In this document: piece after piece, positions 2,404-62,921 of the stretch
How the letters are laid out: each line of letters opens with the position of its first letter
Position numbering within the stretch: the first letter of the stretch is position 1
From: an uncultured Christensenellaceae bacterium
Lineage (GTDB): Bacteria > Bacillota > Clostridia > Christensenellales > SZUA-584
DNA length: 64,000 nt
Direction of reading: 5' to 3'
NCBI GenBank assembly: GCA_964441275.1
Contig: CAYTUG010000005.1
Coordinates: 8,791 to 72,790, forward strand
Program-made: the position numbers and the translations under genes
Notes under the pieces: generated by a model
Seen by the model: only the letters and a program-made list of their open reading frames with translations
Told to the model about the DNA's origin: nothing
Databases searched by the model: none

Positions 2404-3447
2404 ATGAAACGTTCACTTCTTATAGTTTCTGTTTTGCTCGTAGTTGCTTTTCTTATTTCTTGTGCGCCCGAAGTAAAACCTCCGGAGGCGTCTTCAAATC
2501 CAACGCCGGCGCCAACGCTTGCCCCCACGCCTGGGCCCACAATTGAAATAACCGCCGCGCCCACACCCGCGCCGCTTACCTCGTTTACCACGGGACTGCC
2601 GTTTGAAGGCGAGTATAAACCGGTTATGGTGGTTATTGAAAATTCGCCCGCTGCACGCCCTCAGTTGGGTTTGCAGACCGCCGATGTCGTATATGAAGTG
2701 CCTGTGGAAGGCAGCATTACCCGCTTTGTCTGCGTTTTTTCCGATAATGTCGCGGAAAAGGTGCAACCGGTAAGAAGCGCGCGCATTCCTTTTATTTATT
2801 TGCAAGGCGAGTGGGAAGGAATACTAATGCATTTTGGCGCAGCGGGCAGAAAAAAATCTCAATGGAATAGGGAATACAGCGTTTACGGCCATAAACTATA
2901 TAAAAAAAGCGGCATGGTGATGGACGGGCTTAGCGGTACTTGGAAGAATTACTTTTACCGCACTAAAACCGCCAAAGCTCCGCACAATGTGATTGGAAAA
3001 CCGTTAAATGCTGTACAATTGTATAACTACGAACCCGTTCCGCCCGGATGGTTGTTTGATAAATCCCACACATACGAAGCGGAAAACGCCGATACGGTTA
3101 ACCTGCCGATGTGCACAAAGAATAAAAATTTTGTTTCTTATTCTTACGATCAGGACAAAAGCGTTTATCTGCGCTTTATGAATAAAAAAGCGTTTATATC
3201 CGCCGAAACGGGAAAGCAAGTGAATGTAAAGAATATAATAGTGCAGCATAGTACATATAAATCTTCGTCCGGCCGCAAGCTTTGGAATCTTGTAGGCGGC
3301 GGCAAAGCCGAATTTTATATAAACGGCAAAAAAATTGACGGCAGTTGGGAACGGGAGTCCGACAACAAAAAAACCGTATTCCTCGATTCGGGCGGAAAAC
3401 AGATAATCTTATCGCCCGGTAACACATGGGTGCATATTTGCCCATAA
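2404..3447 (+). CDS. DUF3048 (YerB-like) lipoprotein
   Basis: Lipobox AFLISC and a Pro/Thr/Ala linker, followed by TGLPFEGEYKPVMVVIENSPAARPQLGLQTADVVYEVPVEGSITRFVCVF. This closely parallels the conserved core of B. subtilis YerB / DUF3048. Confidence 0.75.
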   Translation: MKRSLLIVSVLLVVAFLISCAPEVKPPEASSNPTPAPTLAPTPGPTIEITAAPTPAPLTSFTTGLPFEGEYKPVMVVIENSPAARPQLGLQTADVVYEVPVEGSITRFVCVFSDNVAEKVQPVRSARIPFIYLQGEWEGILMHFGAAGRKKSQWNREYSVYGHKLYKKSGMVMDGLSGTWKNYFYRTKTAKAPHNVIGKPLNAVQLYNYEPVPPGWLFDKSHTYEAENADTVNLPMCTKNKNFVSYSYDQDKSVYLRFMNKKAFISAETGKQVNVKNIIVQHSTYKSSSGRKLWNLVGGGKAEFYINGKKIDGSWERESDNKKTVFLDSGGKQIILSPGNTWVHICP

Positions 3448-3466
3448 CTTTTTTTAACAGGAGCGT

Positions 3467-4267
3467 TTGATGACCGAATTACGCGGATTGCAGCTGGCCG
3501 AGCTAAATATATTGCTTGATGTGGATGATTTTTGCCGGAAAAATGATATTCCGTATTTTTTAGCCGAAGGAACGTTATTAGGCGCTATCCGCCACAAAGG
3601 GTTTATACCCTGGGATGATGATTTAGATATAATGATGAAGCGCAGCGATTATAACAGGTTTCTTGAAATTGCGCCCAAAGAGCTTAAAGAAAAGTACGAA
3701 GTTCAGCATTCAACAACTGTAAAGAATTACTGGTCACCATTTATCAAGGTGCGGTTAGTGACCGGCGAGCAAAAATACCGTCAGCAGCACATCGCACACT
3801 TAACAAACAACAACGGGCCTTGCATAGACATATTTCCGATTGAATATGTCCCCCGGCAAAAGAGTTTAGCGCAAAAATTTCAAAGCAATTATATTAAATA
3901 TTTAAGAGGAATGCTAAGCCTTAAGCTAAAAATTGTTTGTCCAAAAAGCCTCAAGCGGCGCATGTTACGTTTTATTTCATTGTTTTACAGCATAGACGCA
4001 ATACATAGGCGATTAGAACGCACGTTTAACAAGTATAACAACAAAAAAGAAAACTTTATGGCCATACTCGCCAGCTACCAAAGAATAGAATGCCAAACCG
4101 TACCGGCACATATATACGACAATTTCGTATTTAGAGATTTTGAGGGTCATAAACTGCCCGTTCCAAAAGATTATGATTTTTTGCTAAAGCGCATATACGG
4201 CGATTACATGACTTTGCCGCCGGTTGAAGAAAGAGCAGTCAAGCATCATTATATGAAAGATAATTAA
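3467..4267 (+). CDS. licD: LicD-family phospho-headgroup transferase
   Basis: [50 protein letters not shown] is the canonical LicD N-terminal nucleotidyltransferase-fold motif ([17 protein letters not shown]). RBS AGGAG lies upstream. Confidence 0.85.
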
Positions 4268-5403
4268 GCATCAGCCGCCGCCAAAGGCGGGCAATCTGCA
4301 TCGGCTGCATTTGTTAATTTTTCGATAAACTCCACTACCCTTTCAGTCGAGTTTTCATCATGATAATCGAAATATTCTTGTTTTATTCTTTTTATCCTGC
4401 CGATATCCGGCTTAATATTGTTTATTTCATAAACAAGCTCGTCAAACGTTTTTGTAATTTTGCCGGGCACAAATTCCTCATAGTCCATATAAAAACCCCT
4501 GGCTTGCTTATAGTTATCAAGATCGGGAGCATGGAATATCATTGGACGTTCCAATATCGCATATTCGAACATAATAGTTGAATAGTCGCTCACCAGTAAA
4601 TCCGCGGCACACAGAACGGATATCAAATCCTCGTTTGTTAAATCAATAACATTTTCGGGACAACAAAAATCTCTTATCAAGGGATGAAGCCTGATGGCCA
4701 AAGTATATTTATCCTTAATTTTTTCCGCCAACCCTGCGATATCGATAGGAAGCATGGAAACATCGTCTATGCCTCCGCCTCGAAACGTTGGCGCATACAA
4801 AACAACTTTGCCGTTTGGAATGGCGTATTTATCCGAAATAATCTTTTTTAAGCTGTTTGTCCTCTCTTGATTAAAAAGCGCGTCCGCCCGGGGCGAGCCA
4901 AGCGCATACACATTTTTAATCGGTATATTAAGCGCATCGGCATAAATAGCGCGCACTTTTTCACAGCTTGAAATTGCAAAATCGCACGATTTGATATTAT
5001 AAAGCCTTTTTTTCGTGTCGCTTCCAAACTTTTTTAACGCGCCGCAGGCGTGCCAGATTTGCAGCACTATGGTTTTTCTTTTTTTGATTATTGCATTCAT
5101 AACAACGCTGTTAGCGTCAAGCACCACAACTTTTGCGGTGTTGAAAAAATAGGCTTGCTTTATAATATTTATAAAATACAGCAGTTTGCTTTTTAACGTG
5201 CCCTCGTACTTTTTTAAAAGCAGCACAACGTCATAGCCGCCTTTTTGTTCAACGGCTTCGCAAATGGCTTTAAAGTTCCCCTCCGGCTTGTTTGAAAAGT
5301 ACGAAATAAAAACGATCCTGTTTGCTTTAACGGGCATAAAGCGTGTAAAAATGTTTATTGTAAAAGCGATGGCGTATACGATTATTTTAAAAAGTTTTAG
5401 CAT
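4264..5403 (-). CDS. CDP-glycerol glycerophosphotransferase family protein (TagB/TagF-type)
   Basis: N-terminal membrane-association helix. It carries VLYAPTFRG and the ...[31 protein letters not shown]... motifs typical of Glyphos_transf enzymes. Its stop overlaps the licD stop (TTAA, convergent). Confidence 0.8.
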
Positions 5404-5431
5404 AGCGCCCCTTAAGCCGCTTCAAGCGTAT

Positions 5432-6163
5432 TTATTTCAAACTATTTATGTACTTTTCAACAATCTGATCTACATCCCCTTGGGCAATTAGTTTGCCCTT
5501 TTGCAAAAATATTGCCCGGTTGCAAAACTGTTTAATCGCATCGACGCTGTGGCTGACAAACAATACAGTTATCCCGCTTTCAATCATCTCTTGCACTCTG
5601 TCTTTGCATTTTTCCTGAAACTTATTGTCCCCAACGCTTAGAACCTCGTCAATAATCAGTATATCAGCGTCTATGTTAACGTTGATGGCAAACCCGAGCC
5701 TTGCCCGCATACCGCTTGAATACGTTCTTACAGGTTGATCTATATAATCTCCTATATCCGCAAACCTTATTATGGCCTCCTCAAGCTTTCCTATTTTCTC
5801 TTTCGTAAGCCCTAAGATATAGCCGCGAAGATATATGTTTTCACGCCCTGTCATCTCTATATCAAAACCTGCGGTAAGCTCTAAAAGAGCGCCGACTTGA
5901 CCGTCAACAAATATTTCGCCGCTTGTAGGGTATGTAACGCCGGTTATAAGCTTAAGAATAGTCGATTTGCCTGCGCCGTTTCTTCCTATAAACCCAACGC
6001 TTTCGCCCTTTTTTACCGTAAAGTTTATGTTGCTCAACGCAAGCACTTTTTTAGATTTGATTTGCTTTCTCAAAAACAAAGCTAAAAACCTTTGTTTGTC
6101 GTTTTTAAACAGTCTGTACGACTTTGTAACATTTTTAAATGATATAGCTATATCTTGTCCCAT
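5432..6163 (-). CDS. tagH: Polysaccharide/teichoic-acid export ABC transporter, ATP-binding subunit (TagH-like)
   Basis: Walker A GRNGAGKST, signature YSSGMRARLGFA, Walker B ILIIDEVLSVGD. It lies directly downstream of an ABC-2 permease gene. Confidence 0.85.
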   Translation of the reverse strand: MGQDIAISFKNVTKSYRLFKNDKQRFLALFLRKQIKSKKVLALSNINFTVKKGESVGFIGRNGAGKSTILKLITGVTYPTSGEIFVDGQVGALLELTAGFDIEMTGRENIYLRGYILGLTKEKIGKLEEAIIRFADIGDYIDQPVRTYSSGMRARLGFAINVNIDADILIIDEVLSVGDNKFQEKCKDRVQEMIESGITVLFVSHSVDAIKQFCNRAIFLQKGKLIAQGDVDQIVEKYINSLK

Positions 6164-6177
6164 CGATTACACCATTC

Positions 6178-6975
6178 CTATATAACGTCAAGCATACGTT
6201 TTCTTAACCTTCTATAAACAAGAGAACCTAAAACAACAACGAGCAACAGCAAACAGAGAAAGCCTATAAGCTCGTTAGGCGATTCGAAAAACCACTTCTT
6301 ATATAAAAAAGTGTTTCTGTAGCCGTCAATAATATAACTGACAGGGTTTAACTTCATAATTTTTCTCAACAGCCCTGGTTTTAACGATGCGGGGTCCCAT
6401 ATAATACCTGATAACCAGAATATTGCCGTAATAATAGATTTTAATAAGTTAATAAAATCTTTGCTGATACAGCTTAAGGGGGCTGTTATCCAAGTCAGGC
6501 ATGTAAAAAAAATATACATAACCGGCATATAGAACAATATTTGGATGTTATAAATAGACGGCGCATAACCGGCAAATATAAGTATAACATATGAAATAGC
6601 AATAAGCCCGATGTGCACATACAACCTTGAAAGCGTGACAAAAGTCATGATAGTTGAAACGGGAAAGGGCATTTTTGTTGCGAAATGATTATATCTTCTG
6701 ATTGAGTTCGCGCCGTCAATTATAGAATCCCGTATAAAAAACCAAGTGACAATACCAATCGTTAAAAATAATATGTTTGGCACCCCGCGCACGCTCGTGC
6801 TTGAGCGCAACCCAATCTCAATAGTAAACCAAAGCACAAATATTTGGACAAGCGGCCTTATTATCGCCCACAGTGGCCCAAGTGCAGAGCCTTTATATGT
6901 CTGAATAAGATCGCTTTTAGCTAACTTTAAAATTTGCCTAAAAAATTTTTTGTTCTCCCTAAGTATAAAAAGCAT
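6178..6975 (-). CDS. tagG: ABC-2 type polysaccharide/teichoic-acid export permease (TagG-like)
   Basis: 265 aa, about 6 TM helices, N-terminal ...DLIQTYKGSALGPLWAIIRPL... motif typical of TagG/Wzm permeases. It is paired with the TagH-like ATPase. Confidence 0.8.
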   Translation of the reverse strand: MLFILRENKKFFRQILKLAKSDLIQTYKGSALGPLWAIIRPLVQIFVLWFTIEIGLRSSTSVRGVPNILFLTIGIVTWFFIRDSIIDGANSIRRYNHFATKMPFPVSTIMTFVTLSRLYVHIGLIAISYVILIFAGYAPSIYNIQILFYMPVMYIFFTCLTWITAPLSCISKDFINLLKSIITAIFWLSGIIWDPASLKPGLLRKIMKLNPVSYIIDGYRNTFLYKKWFFESPNELIGFLCLLLLVVVLGSLVYRRLRKRMLDVI

Positions 6976-7100
6976 TTTGCCGCCGCCTCGCTAAATTACT
7001 TTTGCAATTATAATATATTTCTACCATTTTGCCAAGTTAAGCTTTGAATGCAAAAATAGCGTTTGCAAATTAAAGCGTTTTGGCGCGTATATCTTTTAAA

Positions 7101-7129
7101 TTGACCGAAAATTTTTACTATGATAAAAT
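7101..7129 (+). promoter_or_regulatory. Sigma-A-type promoter of the phosphonate operon
   Basis: TTGACC (7101-7106), 17-nt spacer, extended -10 TGaTAAAAT (7121-7129), 64 nt upstream of ATG 7193. Confidence 0.55.
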
Positions 7130-7192
7130 TCGTTTGGGTATTTAGTATCATAAAATTAGCAGATAAACGTTTTAGGAGTATATTATTAACAA

Positions 7193-8497
7193 ATGAAACA
7201 AAAGAAAGTATACATCGCAATGTCTGCCGATGTGCTGCACAACGGCCATATAAAAATAATCGAGGAAGGCGCAAAGCTTGGTGAGGTTACTATCGGCCTG
7301 CTGACAGACGAGGCAATCGCCACGTACAAAAGAATGCCCGTTTTCGGATACGAAGAGCGCCACCGCATACTTTCAAGCCTGCGCTATGTAAGCTGCGTTG
7401 TCAAACAAGCCACTCTTTCGTATGCGGACAATCTAAGGAAACTCAAACCCGATTATGTAGTACATGGAGATGATTGGAAGACGGGTATTCAAGCAATGGT
7501 AAGGGCGGAAGTTATCGATGTGTTGTCCGAATTCAAAGGCAAACTAATAGAAATACCGTATACTAAAGGCGTTACCGGAACTGAGATCGAAAAAACGTTG
7601 CGCCCTATACTAAATACTCCGGATATAAGGCGGGCAAAGCTTAGAAAGCTGCTTAAGCTAAAGCCATACTTGCGCGTACTTGAAGCCTCAAACGGACTAA
7701 CAGGCCTTATTGTTGAAAATGCTAAAATACAGGACGGCGTTTCAATAAAAGAATTTGACGCCATGTGGGTTAGCAGCCTTTGCGACTCTTCTTTTAAAGG
7801 CAAACCGGATATCGAGCTTGTAGATTTGACAAGCCGGATAAACACTATAAACGAAATAATGGAAGTTACAACAAAACCGATAATTCTTGATGCGGACACC
7901 GGCGGACGTGTCGAGCACTTTGCATATAACGTGAAAACTTTAGAACGTCTTGGGGTATCTGCGGTTATTGTTGAAGATAAGATAGGTTTAAAACAAAACT
8001 CGCTTTTCGGCACAGATGCCGTTCAAACTCTTGACGAGCCTTGCGAATTTGCGTATAAAATAAACTCCGGAAAGCGCTCTCAAGTTACCCGCGATTTTAT
8101 GATAATAGCAAGGCTTGAAAGCCTTATAGCAAAAGCAGGCATACAAGACGCGCTAAAGCGCGCTAAGCTTTATATAGAAAGCGGCGCGGACGGCATAATG
8201 ATCCACAGCAAAGAGAAAGACGGCAAAGAGATTGCACAGTTCTTAAAACTGTTCCGCAAATATTCCGCCGATGTTCCCGTAGTCCTTGTGCCGACTTCGT
8301 ACAATCATTTTACGGAAGACGAGCTGTGCGCCATGGGCGGCAATATAATAATTTACGCAAACCACATGCTGCGCAGCGCATACCCGGCGATGTTTCAAAC
8401 GGCGCAGTCGATACTTACGCATGGCAGAAGCAAAGAAGCGGATGAAATGTGCATGTCTATAAAAGAAGTGCTTAGCCTTATCCCCGGAGAGTGCTGA
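7193..8497 (+). CDS. pepM: Bifunctional cytidylyltransferase (TagD/HIGH-type) / phosphoenolpyruvate phosphomutase
   Basis: N-terminal domain: KVYIAMSADVLHNGHIKIIEEG...VVHGDDW (HxGH cytidylyltransferase fold). C-terminal domain: ...ILDADTGG...VIVEDKIGLKQNSLFG (EDKxxxxxNS PepM signature) within an isocitrate-lyase/PEP-mutase fold. Confidence 0.85.
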   Translation: MKQKKVYIAMSADVLHNGHIKIIEEGAKLGEVTIGLLTDEAIATYKRMPVFGYEERHRILSSLRYVSCVVKQATLSYADNLRKLKPDYVVHGDDWKTGIQAMVRAEVIDVLSEFKGKLIEIPYTKGVTGTEIEKTLRPILNTPDIRRAKLRKLLKLKPYLRVLEASNGLTGLIVENAKIQDGVSIKEFDAMWVSSLCDSSFKGKPDIELVDLTSRINTINEIMEVTTKPIILDADTGGRVEHFAYNVKTLERLGVSAVIVEDKIGLKQNSLFGTDAVQTLDEPCEFAYKINSGKRSQVTRDFMIIARLESLIAKAGIQDALKRAKLYIESGADGIMIHSKEKDGKEIAQFLKLFRKYSADVPVVLVPTSYNHFTEDELCAMGGNIIIYANHMLRSAYPAMFQTAQSILTHGRSKEADEMCMSIKEVLSLIPGEC

Positions 8498-8498
8498 T

Positions 8499-9623
8499 AT
8501 GATAAATCCCAAACAGTTTTATGATTATCTGCTAACAAAAGATATATCTCTTTTTACGGGAGTGCCCGACTCGCTGCTTAAAAACCTTTGCGCCTGCATA
8601 ACGGATAACAGCGCGCCGCATATAATTGCCGCCAACGAAGGAAACGCCGTGTCGATAGCGGCGGGGTTTCATATAGCCACCGGAAAATATGGAGCGGTGT
8701 ATATGCAAAATTCCGGCCAGGGCAACGCGGTAAACCCCTTGATTTCGCTTACCGATAAAGACGTGTACAATATCCCGCTGCTGCTTATCATAGGATGGCG
8801 GGGGCAGCCGGGCGTAAACGACGAGCCTCAGCACAAAAAACAGGGTAAACTCACCCTTGGTTTGCTCGATACAATGAAAATACGCCACTTTGTGCTTGAA
8901 GATAATTTCAAACCGCAAATAGACGCTTGCCATGAATACATGAAACAAGAAAACTTGCCGGTTGCAATTATCGTAAAGGCAGACAGTTTTTCGGAATACA
9001 AGCAAACCCCGGCCGCAAAAAAGTTTGATATGCTGCGCGAGCAGGCGCTGGAACAGATACTAAACCGCTTGGACGGAGACGATTTTATAGTATCTACAAC
9101 GGGCAAAACATCGAGAGAAATTTTCGAGCTGCGGGAAAAGAGAGGCGAAGGGCACGCCAACGATTTTTTAACCGTAGGCTCTATGGGGCACTCGGCTTCT
9201 ATTGCCTTAGGAATGGCGTTAGGCGCAAAACAAAACGTTTACTGCATAGACGGAGACGGCTCTTTGCTTATGCACATGGGCGGTTTGGCAATCGCGGCAC
9301 AAAGCGCTCTGCCTAATTATAAATACGTTCTCATTAACAACGGCTCGCACGAATCGGTGGGAGGACAGCCTACCGTGGGCTTTGATATAGACATAAAAGC
9401 CATACTCAAATCGCTCGGGTTCAAACGAGTTTACACCGCGTCAACTAAGCGGCAAACCGCAAACGCAATGCAAAAGCTAAAGGCAAGAAATTTTAGCGCA
9501 CTAATTATTAACGTGTCGCAAGGTTCGAGGCAAAATTTAGGCAGGCCCACAATACCGCCCGAGCAGAACAAGAAGGACATGATGCGGCTTTTCAACAGCA
9601 AAAACAATCTGGAGAATTTTTAA
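8499..9623 (+). CDS. ppd: Phosphonopyruvate decarboxylase (ThDP-dependent)
   Basis: ThDP motif GDGSLLMHMGG...LINNGSHESVGGQ, about 374 aa. It starts 1 nt after the PepM stop. The size and split-domain layout are typical of AepY/Fom2-type Ppd. Confidence 0.85.
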   Translation: MINPKQFYDYLLTKDISLFTGVPDSLLKNLCACITDNSAPHIIAANEGNAVSIAAGFHIATGKYGAVYMQNSGQGNAVNPLISLTDKDVYNIPLLLIIGWRGQPGVNDEPQHKKQGKLTLGLLDTMKIRHFVLEDNFKPQIDACHEYMKQENLPVAIIVKADSFSEYKQTPAAKKFDMLREQALEQILNRLDGDDFIVSTTGKTSREIFELREKRGEGHANDFLTVGSMGHSASIALGMALGAKQNVYCIDGDGSLLMHMGGLAIAAQSALPNYKYVLINNGSHESVGGQPTVGFDIDIKAILKSLGFKRVYTASTKRQTANAMQKLKARNFSALIINVSQGSRQNLGRPTIPPEQNKKDMMRLFNSKNNLENF

Positions 9624-11441
9624 TTGAAAGCAATCATTTTTAATTCCGGGATAGGCAAAAGAATGGGGGAGTTTACGCAAAGCAACCATAAATCGATGGC
9701 GCTTCTTGCGGACGGCGAAACCATATTTGAGCGGCAGATAAGAATACTTGGCGAATGCGGAATCAAAAGCTTTGTAGTCACAACCGGACCGTTTGAGGAG
9801 CAGTTAAAAAGCTGCGTGCAGCGCCGGTTTTCGCATTTGCGGTTTGAGTTTGTACGCAACCCTGTGTTTGACTCCACCAATTACATATATTCTATGCACC
9901 TCGCTAAAGGCTTTTTTGATGAAGCTGCGCTGCTGCTGCACGGCGATCTTGTGTTTAACCGCGCATTGATAACGGCGCTTATAAAAGCTCCCGAGCCTGA
10001 TTTGGCGTTAGCGGACAAGACAAAACCGCTGCCCGGCAAAGACTTTAAAGCGCGCATAAAAGAGGGCCGCTTGGCTCAGGTTTCGGTAAACATATTTGAT
10101 GAGGATTGTTTTGCTTTCCAGCCTTTATATAAGCTTAGCGTAAAAACGCTGGCGGCGTGGGCGGATCGCGTGGAAAAGTTTATAGCGGCAGGCAACGATA
10201 AGGTATACGCCGAAGACGCGCTCAACGAGATATTAAAAAGCCTCGATATTAAAATACACTCGTACGAAAACGACTTTATCGATGAAGTGGATACCCCGCA
10301 GGATTTGCAGCGCGTCTGCGAGCAGATCCGGCAGTTTGATTTTGACGAGCAGCAAATTTTCAATTCGGATTATGACTTTTTAAGAATACCCGAAATACTA
10401 AAAAAAAGCGGCGCCAAACGCCCGATGCTCGTATGCGGCAAATCTTTCGACAACCTGTTTATAAGCAGTTTCTTCGCAAACCTCAACATAGATTTTGTCA
10501 GGTTTTCGGGGTTCTCGCCCAACCCTAAGTATGAAGAAGTGGCTTTGGGCGTCGAGCTGTTTAAACGGCAGGGATGCGATTTTATCGTTTCGGTGGGCGG
10601 GGGAAGCGCTATCGACACCGCCAAAAACATCAAGCTTTTTTCCGCTCTCGACAGGGACAAAAACTATCTGGAACAGCCTTTGAAATACTCCCCCGTAAAG
10701 CATATAGCGATGCCCACCACCGCGGGGACGGGCAGCGAATCGACAAGATTCAGCGTGCTTTATTACAAAGGTGAAAAACAATCGATAGCGCACGATTGCA
10801 TACTGCCCGAATACGCGATACTTGAGCCCAAGCTTTTGGAAACGCTGCCGGACTACCATAAAAAAGCCGCCATGATGGACGCCTTGTGCCAGTGTATAGA
10901 GGCGATGTGGTCGGTAAACAGCAACGAAAAATGCCGCCAGTACGCCAAAGCCGGGATCGAGCTTGCGCTTTCAAATAAGATGGGGTATTTGAACGGCAAA
11001 AAGCAAAGCATGGCGGCAATGCTGCTTGCCGCCAATTACAGCGGCAGGGCAATAAACATCTCGCAGACCACTGCGGCGCACGCAATGAGCTATAAGCTAA
11101 CCTCCATGTACGGAATAGCGCACGGGCATGCGGCGGCGCTTTGTCTTTCGGCGGTGTGGCGATATATGTTAGGGAATAGCGAGGCTCTTGCAGACTCTTT
11201 TGACGCCATATCGTCGGCATTTGGCGTTAAAAGCGTAAATGCGGCGCTTAATATGTTCGACGATATGCTCGGTTTTCTTGAGCTTGAGGCGCCTGCTTTA
11301 ACCAACCCGGAAGATATCAATATGCTTTCAGATTCAGTTAATCCGGAACGGCTGTCCAACAACCCGGTCGCTTTAACTAAGGGGGTTATAAAAGAACTTT
11401 ATAAACAGATATTTAAAACAGTATCGCATTTAGCAACCTAA
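9624..11441 (+). CDS. Fusion of a LicC/MobA-type nucleotidyltransferase and an iron-containing alcohol dehydrogenase (phosphonoacetaldehyde reductase-like)
   Basis: TTG start abuts the ppd stop (GGAG 8 nt upstream). N-terminal domain: MKAIIFNSGIGKRMG (GxGxR NTP_transf_3-type). C-terminal domain: VSVGGGSAIDTAK and ...AHAMSYKL...IAHGHAAAL (Fe-ADH metal-binding His residues). Confidence 0.8.
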   Translation: MKAIIFNSGIGKRMGEFTQSNHKSMALLADGETIFERQIRILGECGIKSFVVTTGPFEEQLKSCVQRRFSHLRFEFVRNPVFDSTNYIYSMHLAKGFFDEAALLLHGDLVFNRALITALIKAPEPDLALADKTKPLPGKDFKARIKEGRLAQVSVNIFDEDCFAFQPLYKLSVKTLAAWADRVEKFIAAGNDKVYAEDALNEILKSLDIKIHSYENDFIDEVDTPQDLQRVCEQIRQFDFDEQQIFNSDYDFLRIPEILKKSGAKRPMLVCGKSFDNLFISSFFANLNIDFVRFSGFSPNPKYEEVALGVELFKRQGCDFIVSVGGGSAIDTAKNIKLFSALDRDKNYLEQPLKYSPVKHIAMPTTAGTGSESTRFSVLYYKGEKQSIAHDCILPEYAILEPKLLETLPDYHKKAAMMDALCQCIEAMWSVNSNEKCRQYAKAGIELALSNKMGYLNGKKQSMAAMLLAANYSGRAINISQTTAAHAMSYKLTSMYGIAHGHAAALCLSAVWRYMLGNSEALADSFDAISSAFGVKSVNAALNMFDDMLGFLELEAPALTNPEDINMLSDSVNPERLSNNPVALTKGVIKELYKQIFKTVSHLAT

Positions 11442-11546
11442 AAACAATCCTGCGTTTCGAAGACTTCCCAGCAGCTAAGTTTTATCAAAAATGCGAGATC
11501 TCCAAATGTTTTTTTGTTAGCATCAACAAAAATTAATAAGCCGCGT

Positions 11547-14099
11547 TTATTTAAACAGCGAATCAAACTGCGCTTTTGCTTCTCTATTGTATTGTGCGGC
11601 ATCAAAATGATAATCCATTTTCCGTCCACCTTCAATAAAGCATTTCATGCCCTTAAGTATACCTTCAGCCGAAAAATCAACCACTATCTGGCCGTTTTCT
11701 AAAAACAAGTCTTTTGCCGTGGTGAAGTTTGAAATAATTATAGGCATGTTAAGCACTCTTGCCTCAAGCACCGCCATGCCAAACCCTTCGTACAGAGAAG
11801 GAAATACAAAACAATCGCATCGTTTCATCAAACCGAAGGGGTTATTCATCATTCCCGTTAGGATAATTTTATCTTGCAAATTATGATACGCTATTATTTC
11901 TTCGAGCGCGGGCTTAAGGTCTCCCCCGCCTATAATATACAGGCGGCAGGCAGGATAAGTTTTTATCAAGCTGGAAAACGCCTCGATTAAGTTCAAATGG
12001 TTTTTTTCCGCCGACAGCCTGCCCATAGTCACAAAGTTAGTGTCGGCGCCGTCGGGAAGCGGTATTGACATAAGCGCCTTTTCAGCTTCGTCGGTGATCC
12101 GCTCGCAATAAAACTTTGCGCCGTCCCGCTCGTAAATCTCAAACGATCCCGATTTTTTCAGCACCCTTTTGTCGCCTATTAAATTGTTAACGTATGTGAA
12201 TTTTTCTTCGGTCTCTTCGTTCGCTAAGCTTTCTCTGTTGCGCTCCATAAGGCTTTTGCCTACCGATACAATCTTATCATACTGCCTGTAAGTTGAAACA
12301 GAACTAAAAATGTTTCTTCGGGATTGCGTATATGTTTTTTGTTTGGCTTTTTCAGAGTTGTTGGCGTCCGCAAGTAAATCAGTATGCTGCCAAATAATTT
12401 TTTTAGGCCCGGGCACAGCTGCGAAAAGATGAGCAAATAAAGCGGAATACCCCGAATAATTAATCAAATAGTCAAACCTTGCGTCTCCAATACAACGTGT
12501 TAATTCACGCTCAAACAACTTTTTTGGGTAAATCTTGCGCGCAAGCCGGCCTTTCATGCCGTGCTTGTGAATATAGTGCCACCGTAAAGCTTCTGTCAGC
12601 GTAACGCAAAATCCCCCCAAACGGCAGAACACCCGCACATTTTTGTTTATTTTTTCAAGGTTGGGATAATTCGCTCTTATATTAAAGGCGATAAGCGATA
12701 CGTCAAATTTTTTATAGTCTATGCTGTTGAGCCTGTTTATCAGCGTGGTGGTCACGCCATCGGTTTTCAGCACGCCGCCGTATATGAGGATTTTCTTTTT
12801 ATTGTTGTTCAAATTTACTGTTCGGTAACTATCACTGTTTTTGTTGAATACGCAGTCCACAATCCTGCTGGCCACTTTGCCGTCTTCATAGGCGCAAAGC
12901 TGCGTTTTGAATTCTTCGTACTTTTGTTTATACCGCGCATTAATATTTTCGATATCGTTAATCCACCCGGCTATCGTCTCGATATCGTCCGAGCCCGGCC
13001 CCGGCAATTCTTCCGGCTTGAAGCATATGCCTCTGTAACCCTCGTATTCTTTTAGATCGGGAATGTAGAACAACATCGGTTTGCCGGAATTCAGATAGTC
13101 GAAAGCAATGCTCGAATAATCGGATATTAAAATGTCAACGATTGATAAGACCTCGTTGGTATCCATACTTGCAGGTATAAACCTTTTCTTTTCACTTAAA
13201 GGCAAGCGAGCGTATACCAAATGGTGTGGTCTTGTCAATACCTGATATTTATCGCCCGTTTTCACCCGCAGTCTTTGTTCAAAGCTTAACAGGTCCGCTG
13301 CGTCAACCTCAGGGGCAGAGTGGTTTTTACCCTTCCATGTTGGCGCATACAAAATTATCTTTTTATTGCTGTCTACATCAATTCCATACTCTTTTAAACT
13401 GCGTAATATTTGTTCCTTGTTTGCATTTAACAGCAAATCGTTGCGGGGAAATCCTTCTTCGATAATTATCCCATCATACAACCCTTCAAGCTTATATGAT
13501 TTTTTAAATATCCCGCTCATAAACGCATTGGGCGACGTTATATAATCAGCCATCATAAAATTTCTTAGTATGTTCTGGCTTAAAATTATGCCTTGCGGCA
13601 TATCAAACCCTAAGGCTTTTAAAGTTGTGCTGTGCCACGTGTTTACGTAAACCTGCCCCTTTTTCTTGGCAAAATATGATGTAAAAGTGGTGTTGTTAAT
13701 CAGGTATTGCGCATTCGCCAGTTTTTTAAGGTATCTAAAGCCGAAGTACTTAATAAAAAAAACGTTGCTCTTCTTGTATGCTTTTTTAAGCCTGCGCAGC
13801 TCTTGTTTCTCTCTTATAGCCCAATAATGTTTATAGCCTTTAAAACTTTCGTCGTTTAACAGCTCTTTAAAGATGGCGTACGGGTTGCATATCATGCCCG
13901 CCCCGGCGTAAGATTCGTAAAGAATTGTGTTCGCCTTTATTTTTTGCGTTTTATGATAGCGCAGATACGCCAACCTTTTGAGATTGAAAGCTTTTAATCT
14001 TTTGCGCATAAATTTGTAAGGCCTGCGCAAAACTTTTTTGACCGGCCTTGGCAGCACTTTCGACAGTATTTTTTTGATAAACCTCATCCAAAACCTCAT
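11547..14099 (-). CDS. Fusion of a TagF-type CDP-glycerol glycerophosphotransferase and a GT4 glycosyltransferase
   Basis: 850 aa. N-terminal half: ILYAPTWKG and ...ILISDYSSIAFDYLNSGKPMLFYIPDLKEYEG (Glyphos_transf). C-terminal half: ...CFVFPSLYEGFGMAVLEARVLNMPII (GT4/Glycos_transf_1 EX7E region). Confidence 0.8.
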   Translation of the reverse strand: MRFWMRFIKKILSKVLPRPVKKVLRRPYKFMRKRLKAFNLKRLAYLRYHKTQKIKANTILYESYAGAGMICNPYAIFKELLNDESFKGYKHYWAIREKQELRRLKKAYKKSNVFFIKYFGFRYLKKLANAQYLINNTTFTSYFAKKKGQVYVNTWHSTTLKALGFDMPQGIILSQNILRNFMMADYITSPNAFMSGIFKKSYKLEGLYDGIIIEEGFPRNDLLLNANKEQILRSLKEYGIDVDSNKKIILYAPTWKGKNHSAPEVDAADLLSFEQRLRVKTGDKYQVLTRPHHLVYARLPLSEKKRFIPASMDTNEVLSIVDILISDYSSIAFDYLNSGKPMLFYIPDLKEYEGYRGICFKPEELPGPGSDDIETIAGWINDIENINARYKQKYEEFKTQLCAYEDGKVASRIVDCVFNKNSDSYRTVNLNNNKKKILIYGGVLKTDGVTTTLINRLNSIDYKKFDVSLIAFNIRANYPNLEKINKNVRVFCRLGGFCVTLTEALRWHYIHKHGMKGRLARKIYPKKLFERELTRCIGDARFDYLINYSGYSALFAHLFAAVPGPKKIIWQHTDLLADANNSEKAKQKTYTQSRRNIFSSVSTYRQYDKIVSVGKSLMERNRESLANEETEEKFTYVNNLIGDKRVLKKSGSFEIYERDGAKFYCERITDEAEKALMSIPLPDGADTNFVTMGRLSAEKNHLNLIEAFSSLIKTYPACRLYIIGGGDLKPALEEIIAYHNLQDKIILTGMMNNPFGLMKRCDCFVFPSLYEGFGMAVLEARVLNMPIIISNFTTAKDLFLENGQIVVDFSAEGILKGMKCFIEGGRKMDYHFDAAQYNREAKAQFDSLFK

Positions 14100-14329: not shown

Positions 14330-14704
14330 TTACTTGACGCGATTTAGGTATTGCTCTAACTTATTTGCCGTGTGCTCGCTTATCGCGTGTTCCATACGGC
14401 ACGCATCGTGTTGGGCAATCTTATTATCTACGTTTAGCACGTCTTTCAAAAATGTTTTTAACAGCTCGTTGCGCTTTTTCACCTTTCCGGCAGCGCATTT
14501 GCCCAACTCTGTAAGCATTATCGTGCCATATTTTTGTTTAGCAATATAGCCTGAATCAGCAAGAATATTCATTGCCCTGCTAACGCTGGCGCGCGACACA
14601 TTTACAGCCTGCGCAACTTGAAAAGAATGAACGGGCTCGCCGTTTTCGGATAGTTCAAGCAATGCTTTTAAATAATCTTGTGTGGACGGAGATATTTTTT
14701 TCAT
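14330..14704 (-). CDS. DtxR/MntR-family metal-dependent transcriptional regulator (short form)
   Basis: STQDYLKALLELSENGEPVHSFQVAQAVNVSRASVSRAMNILADSGYI is the winged-HTH region of iron/manganese-dependent repressors. It is the last gene of the NifX-like operon. Confidence 0.8.
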   Translation of the reverse strand: MKKISPSTQDYLKALLELSENGEPVHSFQVAQAVNVSRASVSRAMNILADSGYIAKQKYGTIMLTELGKCAAGKVKKRNELLKTFLKDVLNVDNKIAQHDACRMEHAISEHTANKLEQYLNRVK

Positions 14705-14730: not shown

Positions 14731-15120
14731 TTAGCCATTATCATGCACATGATCGCATACTGTTTTTTCAATTCCAAACCCTCGGCCTGCACCCGGCGAA
14801 CACAGGCTTTCGCCGCCCATTAGCGCGCCGGTTGCGATTTTTTCAATTACATCTTCAACCGCGCCCTCTATGCCCGCTTTAACTTCTATATCGTACTGAC
14901 AAAACAAATCGATCGCCCTTGCGCCTATGCCGCCGCAAACAATTTGTTTTACCCCCCGTTTGAATAAAAACTCGGGTATTGCCCCCGGCGCATGCCCCGG
15001 GTTAGCTACCGTTTCTTTTTTTATTACCTTGTTATCTTCAACGTCCACAAGCGTATATGTCTGGCACCTTCCAAAGTGCGGTGAAACGCTGTCAAAATCG
15101 GTCGCTATTGCTATTAACAT
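14731..15120 (-). CDS. NifX/NifB-C-terminal-like (Nitro_FeMo-Co family) protein with a Cys/His-rich tail
   Basis: ...VSPHFGRCQTYTLVDVEDNKV...GVKQIVCGGIGARAIDLF... is the typical dinitrogenase FeMo-cofactor-binding fold. It has an extra C-terminal tail, CSPGAGRGFGIEKTVCDHVHDNG. Confidence 0.75.
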   Translation of the reverse strand: MLIAIATDFDSVSPHFGRCQTYTLVDVEDNKVIKKETVANPGHAPGAIPEFLFKRGVKQIVCGGIGARAIDLFCQYDIEVKAGIEGAVEDVIEKIATGALMGGESLCSPGAGRGFGIEKTVCDHVHDNG

Positions 15121-15992
15121 AATTCCTCCTTACCGTTATCTTTTATATGTTCTTTAAGCTTGCTCCAAAGCTCTTTTATTTGCTCAACCACATCAACAAG
15201 CCCCGCTTCAACGGGCGTCATCAAGCCCTGTAACGCTTTTATTATTGCAGGCTCAAACTTTATCTTGCCGATTACGGGAACATTGTTCTTTTTGCATTCG
15301 CTTTCTATTTGCGCGCTTATCTGCGGGTTCAAGTCGTACTTATTTATGCACACATAGGCGGGTATTCTAAAATGGCGGGCCACATCAAGCACCCTGAGCA
15401 AATCACTTTTACCCGACAGCGTAGGTTCGCTCACTACAACCGCAGCATCCGCGCCTGTGATTGAGGCTATTACGGTGCATCCTATTCCGGGCGAGCCGTC
15501 AATAAGCTGCCAAGCCTCACCTTTCTGGTATTCTTTTAGATTTTCTTTTACCTTTGCGACAAGCTTGCCTGAACCTTCTTCCCCTATATCAAGCAAAGCG
15601 TGGGAGAACGTACCTCTTTGGGTGCTGTCCACATAGGTTTCACCCGTCTTTACGTCAACAAGCGAAATGGCGTTTTCGGGGCACACAAGAAAACACGCGC
15701 CGCAACCTTCGCAGTTTATGCTGTCGATTTCAATATCCTCTGTTATTGCGTCAAAACGGCATACCTCTCTGCACAGCCCGCACATATTGCACAGTTTTTT
15801 ATCTATTTGCGCCCGTTTCATTGCGTAATAATCCTGTTGGGCAATCCGATTTCCCGGGACTATAATATGCAGATTCGGAGCTTCCACATCGCAATCGGCA
15901 AAAATTATATCATCCACCAAAAGGCTGAGCGATGCAACTATAGTGCTCTTTCCGGTGCCTCCCTTGCCGCTTATAAAAACAATTTGCTTCAT
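15114..15992 (-). CDS. MinD/ParA-superfamily P-loop ATPase with an inserted 2x[4Fe-4S] ferredoxin domain
   Basis: Deviant Walker A GKGGTGKST. Two CxxCxxCxxxC motifs (CNMCGLCREVC and CEGCGACFLVCP). N-terminal CDVEAPN motif. Confidence 0.8.
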   Translation of the reverse strand: MKQIVFISGKGGTGKSTIVASLSLLVDDIIFADCDVEAPNLHIIVPGNRIAQQDYYAMKRAQIDKKLCNMCGLCREVCRFDAITEDIEIDSINCEGCGACFLVCPENAISLVDVKTGETYVDSTQRGTFSHALLDIGEEGSGKLVAKVKENLKEYQKGEAWQLIDGSPGIGCTVIASITGADAAVVVSEPTLSGKSDLLRVLDVARHFRIPAYVCINKYDLNPQISAQIESECKKNNVPVIGKIKFEPAIIKALQGLMTPVEAGLVDVVEQIKELWSKLKEHIKDNGKEELC

Positions 15993-16816
15993 GTTACCGC
16001 TCCTGCTCTGATTGTTTCGTACAGTTTTAAAAACATTTTTTTATACGGCTTATCCGCATGAACAGGCAATATCCCTTTGGAATAATCCTGCGCTATTTTG
16101 CGCGAATAAGGTATTTTCATAAGTACGGGAATGCCGAGCCGCCCGCAATAATCTTCAATGCTTTTATCGTTTTCCATAGCTTTGTTAATAACTACTCCAA
16201 ATTTTATGCCCATTTTTGTAACAAGTTTTACGGCTATCTTTAAGTCGTTTAGGCCAAAAGGAGTAGGCTCGGTTACAAGCACGCAATAATCACAACCGCT
16301 TATTGTTTTTACAACAGTACATGATGCCCCCGGCGCACAGTCAAGTATCACTGGGGCATCGCTGCGCATCATTTGTTTTAGCCTGCTTATTATAGGTATG
16401 GTAATAAGCTCCCCTATGTTAAGCCTGCCCTGAAGAAACTTGTTTCCTCCGGCTTCAATAACGCCAACTTCTCTTGGCGTTTCGTATACCGCGCCTTTTT
16501 TGCACGCTATTGTGCACGCGCCGCAGTGGTGGCACATTTGCGGAAAAACAATTATTTTACGCTTAACCGCCGCAAGCGCATTAAACATGCATGCCTTAAC
16601 GCAATCCCCGCACCCATCGCACAGCGATTCTTTTATTTTAGGAACTTGCACATACACCTTTTCGGAATGGTCTATATTTGGTTTTAAAAAAAGCGCCCCG
16701 TTCGGCTCCTCTGCGTCGCAGTCGACGTACTGGCATTGCCCAATCGCCACCGCAAGGCTTGCCGATACGGTTGTTTTACCCGTACCGCCCTTTCCGCTTA
16801 AAACTGCTATTGTCAA
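15989..16816 (-). CDS. MinD/ParA-superfamily P-loop ATPase with an inserted 2x[4Fe-4S] ferredoxin domain (paralogue)
   Basis: GKGGTGKTT, CDGCGDCVKAC and CHHCGACTIAC, plus a CDAEEPN motif. It overlaps the downstream paralogue by 4 nt. Confidence 0.8.
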   Translation of the reverse strand: MTIAVLSGKGGTGKTTVSASLAVAIGQCQYVDCDAEEPNGALFLKPNIDHSEKVYVQVPKIKESLCDGCGDCVKACMFNALAAVKRKIIVFPQMCHHCGACTIACKKGAVYETPREVGVIEAGGNKFLQGRLNIGELITIPIISRLKQMMRSDAPVILDCAPGASCTVVKTISGCDYCVLVTEPTPFGLNDLKIAVKLVTKMGIKFGVVINKAMENDKSIEDYCGRLGIPVLMKIPYSRKIAQDYSKGILPVHADKPYKKMFLKLYETIRAGAVT

Positions 16817-16820
16817 TTTG

Positions 16821-17186
16821 TTATCCCCTTTGACCGTGCCGCGCGGGCCCCGGCGCAGTTATCTGTTCCAACGCCCCTTGTAAAAAAAGCTCAACATTCT
16901 CTTTTACCGAAATTTCTTTGCCCCTGTAAACTTTTACGCCGGCGGCGTTTAACACCCTGCTCGCATTAGGGCCGACATTTCCGGTTATGACCGCTTCAAC
17001 GTTTTTATCGACAACCGTTTGTGCGGCGGAAATTCCGGCGCCGCCTGCAGATGCCGCCGCGGCGTTTTCAAGCCCCTCGCCTTTTAACGTTTTTGTATCC
17101 ACAATAATAAAAGCCTTCGCTCTTCCAAACCTTAAATCTAACCGGCTGTCCATACCATTCCCTTCAGCTGATACCGCAATAATCAC
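16821..17186 (-). CDS. NifX/NifB-C-terminal-like (Nitro_FeMo-Co family) protein
   Basis: ...RFGRAKAFIIVDTKT...VEAVITGNVGPNASRVLNAAGVKVY. The ORF track begins at a TTG (17222). I prefer GTG 17186 because GGGAGG (17194-17199) lies 7 nt upstream. Confidence 0.7.
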   Translation of the reverse strand: MIIAVSAEGNGMDSRLDLRFGRAKAFIIVDTKTLKGEGLENAAAASAGGAGISAAQTVVDKNVEAVITGNVGPNASRVLNAAGVKVYRGKEISVKENVELFLQGALEQITAPGPARHGQRG

Positions 17187-17226
17187 AATTTTACCTCCCA
17201 ATGGTTTTTGTTTTATACCCAAAACT

Positions 17227-41118: not shown

Positions 41119-41821
41119 GCATTGTAAAGATTGCATAACAATAAAAAAATATAATATGCCGGTTTCTCATAACAACGAGAGGTTGCGTAGGCGCAAACTA
41201 TTGCCGGTTATCATTTCTGTTGTTTTAATTCTGTCCGGCGTTATAATAATTGTTTTTGCGCTTGAGGCTAAATTAAAGGAATGCGCTGTACAATCCAATC
41301 TGCGCAGCATTTATGCAAAACAGGCTAAACCGGCCGAAACAACGCCTGCAGCCGGCTTTACACCAATAATTTTACCCGGCGATAATATGGAATACGATGA
41401 GATGGACGACAGTTTATCATCGCCGCTTAAACCCGTGTGTTTGTTGAAAATCCCAAAGATATCGCTTGATGTCGCAGTAGCGCAGGGTACAAACAATTCC
41501 GTGCTGCGTTATGCAGTAGGCCATTTTGAAGGAACGGCATTTCCGGGCGATACGGGCAACTTTTGCCTTGCGGGGCATAGAAGTTACACTTCGGGACAAT
41601 TTTTTAATCGGTTGGATGAGATTGAAATTGGCGATGAGCTAATTATAGATTACTTCGACAATACTTACACCTATATCGTTTCCGATATATTTGTCGTCAG
41701 GCCGGACGATATTTGGGTTCTCGACCCTACTTCCGATTCACAGATAACGTTGGTTACATGCACTCCAATCCGCGTTTCTACGCACAGGCTTATAATAAGA
41801 GGTTTTTTACAGCCAAAATGA
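41108..41821 (+). CDS. Sortase-family transpeptidase
   Basis: N-terminal TM anchor, ...FCLAGHRSY (catalytic His region), QITLVTCTP (TLxTC Cys), ...RLIIRG (Arg). The start may be ATG 41156. The track start overlaps the adhesin gene by 11 nt. Confidence 0.85.
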   Translation: MNNKHCKDCITIKKYNMPVSHNNERLRRRKLLPVIISVVLILSGVIIIVFALEAKLKECAVQSNLRSIYAKQAKPAETTPAAGFTPIILPGDNMEYDEMDDSLSSPLKPVCLLKIPKISLDVAVAQGTNNSVLRYAVGHFEGTAFPGDTGNFCLAGHRSYTSGQFFNRLDEIEIGDELIIDYFDNTYTYIVSDIFVVRPDDIWVLDPTSDSQITLVTCTPIRVSTHRLIIRGFLQPK

Positions 41822-57618: not shown

Positions 57619-57648
57619 ATCCTTTCTACAATTATTGTCGCAGCAAGT

Positions 57649-62837: not shown

Positions 62838-62921
62838 AGCCCGTTACCTAAAACTCTCCCAAGTATCGCAATATCGAAATTTTAAAACAAATGGGATGTA
62901 TTTGTTCTAACTTACAGTTAT

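Follow-up and report, generated by a model that had tools for sequence, protein, structure and literature searches.

The locus analyzed here raises the question of why an operon for phosphonate synthesis should carry two unrelated nucleotidyltransferase domains, each fused to a different enzyme of the pathway, and which phosphonate these domains activate. It lies in a 64-kb stretch of DNA (hereafter the window, meaning the whole stretch analyzed) from an uncultured Christensenellaceae bacterium and consists of three forward-strand open reading frames at positions 7193-8497, 8499-9623 and 9624-11441, precisely where the first-pass annotation had put them. Successive genes are separated by 1 nt and 0 nt and are translationally coupled; given gaps this small, we treat the three as one operon. 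We consider it probable that this operon makes 2-hydroxyethylphosphonate (HEP) in its CMP-activated form (CMP-HEP) for transfer onto a wall polymer. The earlier proposal that the pathway stops at HEP and activates it as a CMP conjugate for LicD is supported by residues typical of the reductase PhpC, a Fom1-like cytidylyltransferase domain, fusions to LicD in relatives and the lack of a transaminase for 2-aminoethylphosphonate (AEP) in the window or as a recurring gene in 160 related loci.

The enzymes that would make the carbon-phosphorus (C-P) bond and commit the pathway both score above curated family cut-offs. Pfam was run on all open reading frames of at least 150 aa in the window, minus those nested antisense in a longer gene, and in the first gene (434 aa) it returned PF01467 (CTP_transf_like, aa 13-105) and PF13714 (PEP_mutase, aa 150-408). 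The C-terminal domain (7628..8497, + strand, aa 146-434) is a predicted phosphoenolpyruvate (PEP) mutase (Ppm/AepX): it scores 384 bits on TIGR02320, against an equivalog cut-off of 319.55, and carries EDKIGLKQNS at aa 261-270, matching the EDKxxxxxNS motif that sets Ppm apart from other enzymes of the isocitrate-lyase family. The second gene (8499..9623, + strand) passes the model for phosphonopyruvate decarboxylase (Ppd/AepY; TIGR03297, 439 bits, equivalog cut-off 312.5), a thiamine pyrophosphate (TPP)-dependent enzyme, and has the N- and C-terminal TPP domains PF02776 and PF02775.

The N-terminal domain of the first gene (CyT; 7193..7612, + strand, aa 1-140) is a HIGH-type cytidylyltransferase and, judged by its sequence, is a close relative of the HEP cytidylyltransferase domain of Fom1 and not a TagD. 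Residues 2-137 align without gaps to the Fom1 CyTase domain (5X3D) in a PDB search, with 165 bits and 72 of 136 positions identical (53%), as against about 41 bits for TagD structures (B. subtilis, S. aureus; 1COZ). The TagD model TIGR01518 gives 50.8 bits on this domain, well short of its cut-off of 165.4, and 184.6 bits on the genuine TagD of a related locus (L004). The HxGH motif reads HNGH at aa 16-19, with H16, G18 and H19 conserved, and HxGH, KR and HGDDW are each kept in at least 95% of 57 homologues. The first-pass annotation had described a TagD/HIGH-type cytidylyltransferase fused to PEP mutase; the HIGH-type fold and the fusion stand and the TagD label does not. Its remark that the window holds no stand-alone tagD was borne out, in that tblastn of the 64 kb found no tagD-like sequence apart from the fused domain. 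CMP-HEP is the demonstrated product of the Fom1 CyTase (Cho 2017, as cited in PMC6697681).

The third gene encodes a 605-aa protein whose TTG start abuts the Ppd stop codon, with GGAGAA located 8 nt upstream. Its C-terminal part (10359..11441, + strand, aa 246-605) is a group III dehydrogenase of the iron-containing alcohol dehydrogenase (Fe-ADH) fold, matching PF00465 and PF25137 at aa 251-596, and is predicted to be a phosphonoacetaldehyde reductase of the PhpC/FomC type. The closest solved relative is a sulfoacetaldehyde reductase from Bifidobacterium (6JKO; 122 bits), the substrate of which is the sulfonate analogue of phosphonoacetaldehyde; Foldseek, run on the model of the whole 605-aa protein, returned only Fe-ADH matches and likewise ranked 6JKO first, with a target-normalized TM of 0.86. 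The metal site is complete, with D419, Q423, H486 and H500 aligned to the 6JKO ligands D192, Q196, H261 and H275; the Gln ligand is replaced by His in 14 of 76 homologues. Recent work on PhpC provides a means of separating the two substrates: four positions after the first metal-binding His, PhpC enzymes without exception have Tyr where sulfoacetaldehyde reductases have Phe, and a Lys157/Arg349 pair in PhpC clamps the phosphonate (PMC13576164). The window protein has the PhpC-type residue, Y490, where 6JKO has its Phe; the clamp Lys corresponds to K385 in the alignment, and R576 is placed for the clamp Arg by spacing only, which makes that assignment less certain. All three residues are invariant in the 76 homologues, including two Bacteroidota proteins that PGAP names phosphonoacetaldehyde reductase, one of which, from Segatella copri, is 46% identical to the window domain. 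The reductase is also linked to Ppm and Ppd in essentially all related loci. With signature residues and gene context pointing the same way, the domain looks like a phosphonoacetaldehyde reductase.

Fused in front of this reductase is the second nucleotidyltransferase (9624..10328, + strand, aa 1-235), a LicC/PntC-like domain of the MobA fold with PF12804 (NTP_transf_3) at aa 3-124; the earlier description of a LicC/MobA-type NTP transferase joined to an Fe-ADH was thus confirmed. LicC (1JYK) is its top PDB match, and the PntC domain of Tde1415 (6PD1) is matched over aa 2-228 (30 bits); both matches are weak but full-length. The G9-x-G11-x-R13 loop, K23, D108, E221 and D223 are invariant in 77 homologues. 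In the Treponema denticola PntC, the AEP amine is bound by Glu104 and Glu196 (Rice et al. 2019, PMC6697681). In the window domain Glu196 is retained as E197, and Glu104 is replaced by His106, which is invariant in the same 77 sequences and which 143 of the 146 subfamily cluster representatives share. The exchange of an acid for His is suggestive of a hydroxyl rather than an ammonium substrate, in an alignment of about 20% identity for which the LLxxDL motif serves as anchor. An AF2 model of the 605-aa protein has high overall confidence (pLDDT 92.7, pTM 0.90), which suggests that the two domains form a fixed assembly; transfer of HEP from the reductase to the nucleotidyltransferase would lead one to expect such an arrangement. 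Separately, we noted a stand-alone member of the LicC-like subfamily on a metagenome contig (L084, Ga0129310_1001602, 8001-8723; 97% identical to P0197), where the 15.7-kb stretch contains no Ppm, Ppd, Fe-ADH or LicD and no phosphonate genes occur within 8 kb.

A plausible scenario that accommodates these assignments runs from PEP to a decorated polymer. The Ppm domain would rearrange PEP to phosphonopyruvate, which Ppd would decarboxylate irreversibly to phosphonoacetaldehyde, steps for which we rely on family membership above curated cut-offs. The Fe-ADH domain would then reduce phosphonoacetaldehyde to HEP with NAD(P)H, a prediction supported by the signature residues and gene context described above. 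HEP and CTP would next give CMP-HEP. We propose that both nucleotidyltransferase domains are capable of this step, the LicC/PntC-like domain acting on the product of its own fused reductase, as Tde1415 does for AEP, and the Fom1-like domain having the activity shown for Fom1. Finally, the LicD-family enzyme encoded nearby would attach the hydroxyethylphosphonyl group to a teichoic-acid-like glycopolymer through one of its hydroxyls, the polymer being built by two TagF-like enzymes and exported by a TagGH-like ABC transporter. We infer these last two steps from homology to characterized enzymes and from domain fusions in relatives.

Those relatives were drawn from 160 loci, 80 from genomes and 80 from metagenomes, the metagenome scan having been seeded with 12 stand-alone nucleotidyltransferase sequences; frequencies given out of 70 refer to the best genome loci with enough upstream sequence. 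In a collection of 5.8 billion proteins, the 120 best matches to the 605-aa protein all span the nucleotidyltransferase/Fe-ADH fusion at 44-98% identity; PF12804 and Fe-ADH are both present in all but two (P0033 and P0066), and many have an extra C-terminal LicD domain. The fusion occurs in at least 357 GTDB species genomes, with carriers among Clostridia, Bacilli-type metagenome-assembled genomes (MAGs), Propionibacteriaceae, Eggerthellaceae, Muribaculaceae and Chloroflexota. The exact sequence of the 605-aa protein is not on record; the closest genome match, in a Christensenellaceae MAG, is 71% identical, and the Logan assembly SRR8925810 contains a copy that is 98% identical and has the same gene order around it. 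The family is named in databases only as 'iron-containing alcohol dehydrogenase', and a literature search found no description of the fusion. The first-pass annotation considered the fusion pair an unusual architecture, a view that is not sustained by these numbers or by a survey of domain architectures in which Ppm is fused to PF01467 in 23.6% of Ppm enzymes, to PF12804 in 33% and to both in 2.8-2.9% (Rice 2019, PMC6697681); at 23.6%, the CyT-Ppm fusion is an ordinary one.

Ppd is encoded in 70/70 of the genome loci and Ppm in 69/70, with a CyT domain on Ppm in 60/70 and none in 9/70; LicD is found in 36/70 and a TagF-like gene in 19/70. Both nucleotidyltransferases co-occur in 60/70 of these loci and in at least 55 of the 80 metagenome loci, and median identity across loci is 62% for CyT, 55% for the PntC-like domain and 47% for the ADH. 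The nine loci in which Ppm lacks CyT are of a Lachnospiraceae type (L058, L062, L066, L068, L069, L070, L072, L073 and L079), and there the LicC-like domain must supply the activated phosphonate, being the only nucleotidyltransferase present. Upstream of Ppm (approximately 3000-8000), most of the nine encode an acyltransferase, an AMP-binding enzyme, a B12-binding radical SAM enzyme, a CDP-alcohol phosphatidyltransferase and a 215-aa protein of no known function. This variant looks like a phosphonolipid cluster, possibly with a methylated HEP head group. The radical SAM enzyme is possibly Fom3-like; its NCBIfam similarity is only generic to class B methyltransferases (HpnR 143 bits, PhpK family 70 bits, all below cut-off). 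The opposite arrangement, CyT-Ppm with Ppd, reductase and LicD and no LicC-like domain, is found on Fulvitalea plasmid pFA2, so variants with a single nucleotidyltransferase of either kind exist.

The remaining loci permute the same parts. The PntC-like and ADH domains are separate adjacent genes in L025, L038, L040 and L045, and in many relatives LicD is joined to them as a PntC-ADH-LicD fusion. Two independent Oscillospiraceae/Clostridia MAGs (L003, 3255-8798; L005, 10001-15535) have, directly after CyT-Ppm and Ppd, a single open reading frame of 1844-1847 aa with the order PntC-ADH-LicD-GT2-TagF, in which Pfam identifies Glyphos_transf and a C-terminal stretch is about 30% identical to the glycosyltransferase (GT4) half of a window protein described below (tblastn). 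The plasmid NZ_CP085933 of S. copri DSM 18205, a Gram-negative gut bacterium, carries inside an O-antigen/capsule locus (L081, 7293-12767) a 669-aa triple-fusion aepX (WP_006848642.1; NTP_transf_3, CTP_transf_like and Ppm), after which come Ppd, an unfused phosphonoacetaldehyde reductase and a gene for a TagF-like enzyme; neither LicD nor tagD occurs within 8 kb of the module. Complete PntC-CyT-Ppm triple fusions number 51 in rumen and gut metagenome loci and are nearly always accompanied by Fe-ADH. Both nucleotidyltransferases are instead on the reductase in four loci (L146, L104, L147 and L163), as in the 761-aa protein of L146 (8001-10286; NTP_transf_3, CTP_transf_like and Fe-ADH, confirmed with Pfam); Ppm lies elsewhere on the contig in three of the four and is not visible in the 8.4 kb of L147. 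By Rosetta-stone logic, such permuted fusions imply that the five domains, often with LicD and TagF, act in one pathway. Besides CyT-Ppm, two loci (L004 and L056) have a genuine stand-alone tagD beside TagF genes, and four further loci have a TagD-like domain fused to an oxidoreductase. Proteins of 450-477 aa that combine a TagD-like CTP_transf_like domain with a GFO_IDH_MocA oxidoreductase, and thus represent another cytidylyltransferase-reductase fusion, lie near the HEP cassette in L025 (5330-6682), L040 (5331-6683) and L061 (15473-16906).

The operon is flanked by wall-polymer genes. Upstream on the + strand lie a DUF3048 lipoprotein-like protein (2404..3447; PF11258 and PF17479, with an N-terminal hydrophobic segment) and, directly after it, a LicD-family phosphotransferase (3467..4267; PF04991, 159 bits, threshold 22.6), which is predicted to be the CMP-HEP:glycan phosphonyl transferase and is approximately 41% identical to the LicD domains fused to the nucleotidyltransferase/Fe-ADH protein in L002-L005. 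On the - strand follow a 379-aa protein of the TagF/TarF-like CDP-glycerol glycerophosphotransferase family (4264..5403; PF04464, 271 bits) and a TagGH-like ABC-2 exporter (5432..6975), consisting of an ATPase (5432-6163, PF00005) and a permease (6178-6975, PF01061). All of these genes are syntenic in L001 and L083, and the TagGH-like pair adjoins the cassette in L004, L022, L027, L038, L047 and L056. Convergent with the operon is an 850-aa bifunctional protein (11547..14099, - strand) with a TagF-like part (PF04464, aa 48-419) and a GT4 glycosyltransferase (PF00534, aa 686-825). Homologues 41-47% identical to this protein are encoded beside the cassette in Yeguia hominis (L014), L022, Propionicimonas (L055) and Arachnia (L067); TagF-GT4 proteins flank it in three phyla altogether.

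With regard to the product, the principal alternative to HEP is AEP, made with an aminotransferase encoded elsewhere, in which case the Fe-ADH would act on some other substrate or have a side role. No surface phosphonate is commoner than AEP, AEP clusters can contain PF01467-Ppm fusions and the part of the genome visible to us is 64 kb, but we nevertheless hold this to be very unlikely. The Fe-ADH occupies the place that the AEP transaminase has in Tde1415 and is tied to Ppm and Ppd across the related loci, it bears the PhpC signature residues, and the Glu that would bind the AEP amine has become His. Furthermore, Pfam found no aminotransferase family, class V (PF00266) included, among the scanned frames of the window, in agreement with the earlier statement that no AepZ-type enzyme is present in the 64 kb, and among the 160 loci there is no recurrent aminotransferase of the AEP type, only the DegT sugar type being found repeatedly (three genome and six metagenome loci). 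That the Fe-ADH is catabolic, oxidizing HEP to phosphonoacetaldehyde, we regard as extremely improbable. Degradative PhpC-type enzymes do exist, in Bacillota as well (PMC13576164), but the gene is translationally coupled to biosynthetic Ppm and Ppd, its product carries a nucleotidyltransferase domain and, in relatives, LicD as well, and no PhnX, PhnY, PhnA or PhnW was found among the Pfam-scanned frames of the window.

As to why two nucleotidyltransferases are kept, we give moderate weight to the possibility that both make CMP-HEP; simple redundancy is argued against by the conservation of both domains and their co-occurrence in very different lineages. They might instead be non-redundant, one making CMP-HEP and the other accepting something else (as yet unreduced phosphonoacetaldehyde, a modified HEP or another NTP, for example), so that two activated donors would be available, perhaps for LicD and the TagF-like enzymes. 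Both folds occur with Fe-ADH across Clostridia, Actinomycetota and Bacteroidota-type loci in many permutations, including those with both on Ppm or both on the reductase; both are under strong purifying selection, their median identities exceeding that of the ADH; and the S. copri locus combines both with a TagF-like enzyme. Against this, single-nucleotidyltransferase variants apparently work, namely Fulvitalea pFA2 with CyT, the Lachnospiraceae-type loci with PntC-ADH and the fosfomycin pathway with Fom1, and the nearest characterized relatives act on the final C2 phosphonate (Fom1 on HEP, PntC on AEP); we judge two distinct donors to be possible but unlikely. The suggestion that one domain makes CDP-glycerol, that is, that CyT is the TagD supplying the two TagF-like enzymes, was considered and rejected. 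Two TagF-family genes flank the operon, no separate tagD is in the window, and fold and HxGH motif are shared with TagD, yet the domain fails the TagD model and is far closer to Fom1, relatives carry tagD as a separate gene or have a TagD-like domain on an oxidoreductase, and CyT is partnered with Ppm in the 60 loci regardless of TagF genes; this role is highly improbable. A further idea is that TagF-family enzymes, and not LicD alone, use the CMP-HEP donor, with HEP serving as an in-chain unit of a phosphonate-linked teichoic-acid-like polymer (glycosyl-HEP or poly-HEP) and the pair of nucleotidyltransferases serving two donors or routes. HEP could be such a building block since it has both a phosphonyl group and a free hydroxyl, and hints come from the S. 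copri module without LicD or tagD, the long L003/L005 fusions, the TagF-GT4 flanks in three phyla and the window's want of a tagD; it is nonetheless quite doubtful. LicD is the obvious candidate to accept CMP-HEP, with the S. copri module presenting a TagF-like gene and no LicD beside it.

Several observations weigh against the proposal that the operon makes CMP-HEP for wall-polymer transfer. Joint retention of both nucleotidyltransferases would be unexpected if they catalyzed the same reaction, and CyT is better conserved than the PntC-like domain or the ADH. An aminotransferase could lie outside the window. The Fe-ADH domain reaches 132 bits on TIGR03405 (Phn_Fe-ADH/PsrA), far short of the cut-off (423.7), and unrelated Fe-ADH models give it similar scores; the PGAP-named phosphonoacetaldehyde reductases of S. 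copri and Fulvitalea also fail TIGR03405 (133 and 166 bits), which indicates that the model covers only a narrower clade. LicD-family enzymes also transfer other phospho-alcohols, and the stand-alone member in L084 means that the LicC-like subfamily is not exclusive to phosphonate loci. Lastly, a PF01467-Ppm fusion is also present in the AEP cluster of Bacteroides fragilis (PMC8942020), so the CyT-Ppm architecture cannot by itself fix the substrate; for this reason we did not use CyT alone to discriminate between HEP and AEP. The PF01467-Ppm fusions on two plasmids, the only cases examined, are both HEP-type.

As for expression of the operon, an AGGAG ribosome-binding site precedes the ATG at 7193, and the divergent intergenic region upstream contains a sigma-70-like promoter candidate (7101..7129, + strand; TTGACC-17-TAAAAT with a TG extension), a consensus match that we take as weak evidence. 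A scan for terminators downstream of 11441 gave no convincing candidate. The G+C content is 46-47% over the operon (8001-12000) and 38-42% in the flanking wall-polymer genes; this contrast and the occurrence of the cassette in several phyla at 50-60% identity would fit its horizontal acquisition. The remainder of the window looks like a Clostridia-type chromosome, with fab and acc operons, a GTP-dependent PEP carboxykinase, a GH26 protein with CBM35 and a sortase-dependent adhesin. Other features deserve brief mention. At 14731-17222 (- strand), two small Nitro_FeMo-Co (NifB/NifX-like) proteins flank two CbiA/MinD-type ATPases with 4Fe-4S ferredoxin inserts, adjoined by an iron-dependent repressor at 14330-14704; these genes may form a metal-cluster carrier or assembly operon. 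An exopolysaccharide-type operon at 54546-63950 (- strand) encodes a GGDEF protein, a BcsB-like subunit (746 aa), a GT2 synthase (431 aa), a DUF2334-like protein and three open reading frames with no Pfam match, one of them of 513 aa with approximately nine hydrophobic segments. At 37516-41821 (+ strand), a 1200-aa Collagen_bind/SpaA-repeat surface protein is followed by a sortase. Two further proteins, encoded at 775-2082 and 45413-47281, have a signal peptide and a hydrophobic segment near the C-terminus but no Pfam match.

Surface phosphonates are thought to make up most bacterial C-P bond synthesis. To our knowledge, the activating enzyme in phosphonyl tailoring has been characterized for the AEP branch only. 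The operon is a variation on this known pathway, neither a new kind of system nor a rare one, and the window offers a clean example of what would be its HEP branch, with a LicC-like domain joined to a reductase in place of the AEP transaminase. Members of the nucleotidyltransferase/Fe-ADH family are widespread in Clostridia of gut and rumen, Bacilli-type MAGs, Propionibacteriaceae and Bacteroidota. If our reading is true, many commensals would bear hydrolysis-resistant hydroxyethylphosphonate on their wall polymers, with a bearing on phage receptors, immune recognition and the source of environmental HEP, for which catabolic pathways were first described in 2026 (PMC13576164). The fusion permutations also provide cultured carriers and single-polypeptide constructs with which to ask why two unrelated nucleotidyltransferases persist; cultured carriers include Yeguia hominis NSJ-40 (L014), Anaerosporobacter mobilis DSM 15930 (L070), Butyrivibrio sp. 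LB2008 (L062), Tessaracoccus caeni HF-7 (L057) and S. copri DSM 18205.

There is direct precedent for the organization of the 605-aa protein. Tde1415 of T. denticola, which the first-pass annotation missed and which we regard as the closest characterized analogue, has an N-terminal PntC and a C-terminal AEP transaminase (structures 6PD1/6PD2; Rice et al. 2019, PMC6697681); in both proteins an N-terminal PF12804 domain is fused to the enzyme that turns, or is predicted to turn, phosphonoacetaldehyde into the nucleotidyltransferase's substrate. The Tde1415 cluster likewise holds a second, Ppm-fused nucleotidyltransferase, with LicD-type or glycosyltransferase genes nearby, and the presence of more than one nucleotidyltransferase per phosphonate cluster was noted there and left unexplained (PMC6697681). 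The window protein differs in ending with an Fe-ADH reductase rather than a class V aminotransferase, an exchange from which we predict HEP, not AEP, as the substrate; similarity of the nucleotidyltransferases is low, and the position of Tde Glu104 is taken by the invariant His106. In the Streptomyces fosfomycin pathway (Fom1/Fom2/FomC), too, a PF01467 CyTase is fused to Ppm, and Ppd and a phosphonoacetaldehyde reductase of the Fe-ADH type come next. That pathway lacks the wall-polymer context and the extra LicC-like domain on the reductase, and as no equivalents of Fom3, Fom4 or FomD are found in the window, fosfomycin would not be the product. Compared with PhpC, FomC, DhpG and the sulfoacetaldehyde reductase 6JKO/6JKP, the reductase has the same group III ADH fold, a D/Q/H/H metal site identical to that of 6JKO and the PhpC Tyr and Lys/Arg clamp; it differs in being fused to a nucleotidyltransferase, it falls below the cut-off of TIGR03405, the one curated model for phosphonate Fe-ADHs, and it has Gln where the ligand His195 is reported for P. 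fungorum PhpC.

The predicted use of the activated phosphonate resembles the pneumococcal LicC/LicD phosphocholine system, in which a head group is CMP-activated by a LicC-fold enzyme and moved by LicD onto a teichoic-acid-type polymer. Here the head group would be made de novo from PEP and contain a C-P bond, choline kinase and a choline transporter are absent, and export would be TagGH-like rather than through the TacF flippase. The S. copri module has the same five catalytic domains in one operon, its LicC-like domain being 39% identical over 235 aa and its reductase similar to the extent given above; unlike in the window, the LicC-like domain is there on Ppm instead of the reductase and the adjacent transferase is TagF-like. 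A parallel in design is seen in the CDP-ribitol synthases Bcs1 and TarI-TarJ. There, too, a cytidylyltransferase is fused to or paired with a reductase, and an aldehyde or ketone precursor is first reduced and then activated with CMP for use by a transferase of teichoic-acid or capsule synthesis; these systems use an SDR/MDR reductase fold, a nucleotidyltransferase of the IspD subfamily and a phosphate rather than a phosphonate substrate.

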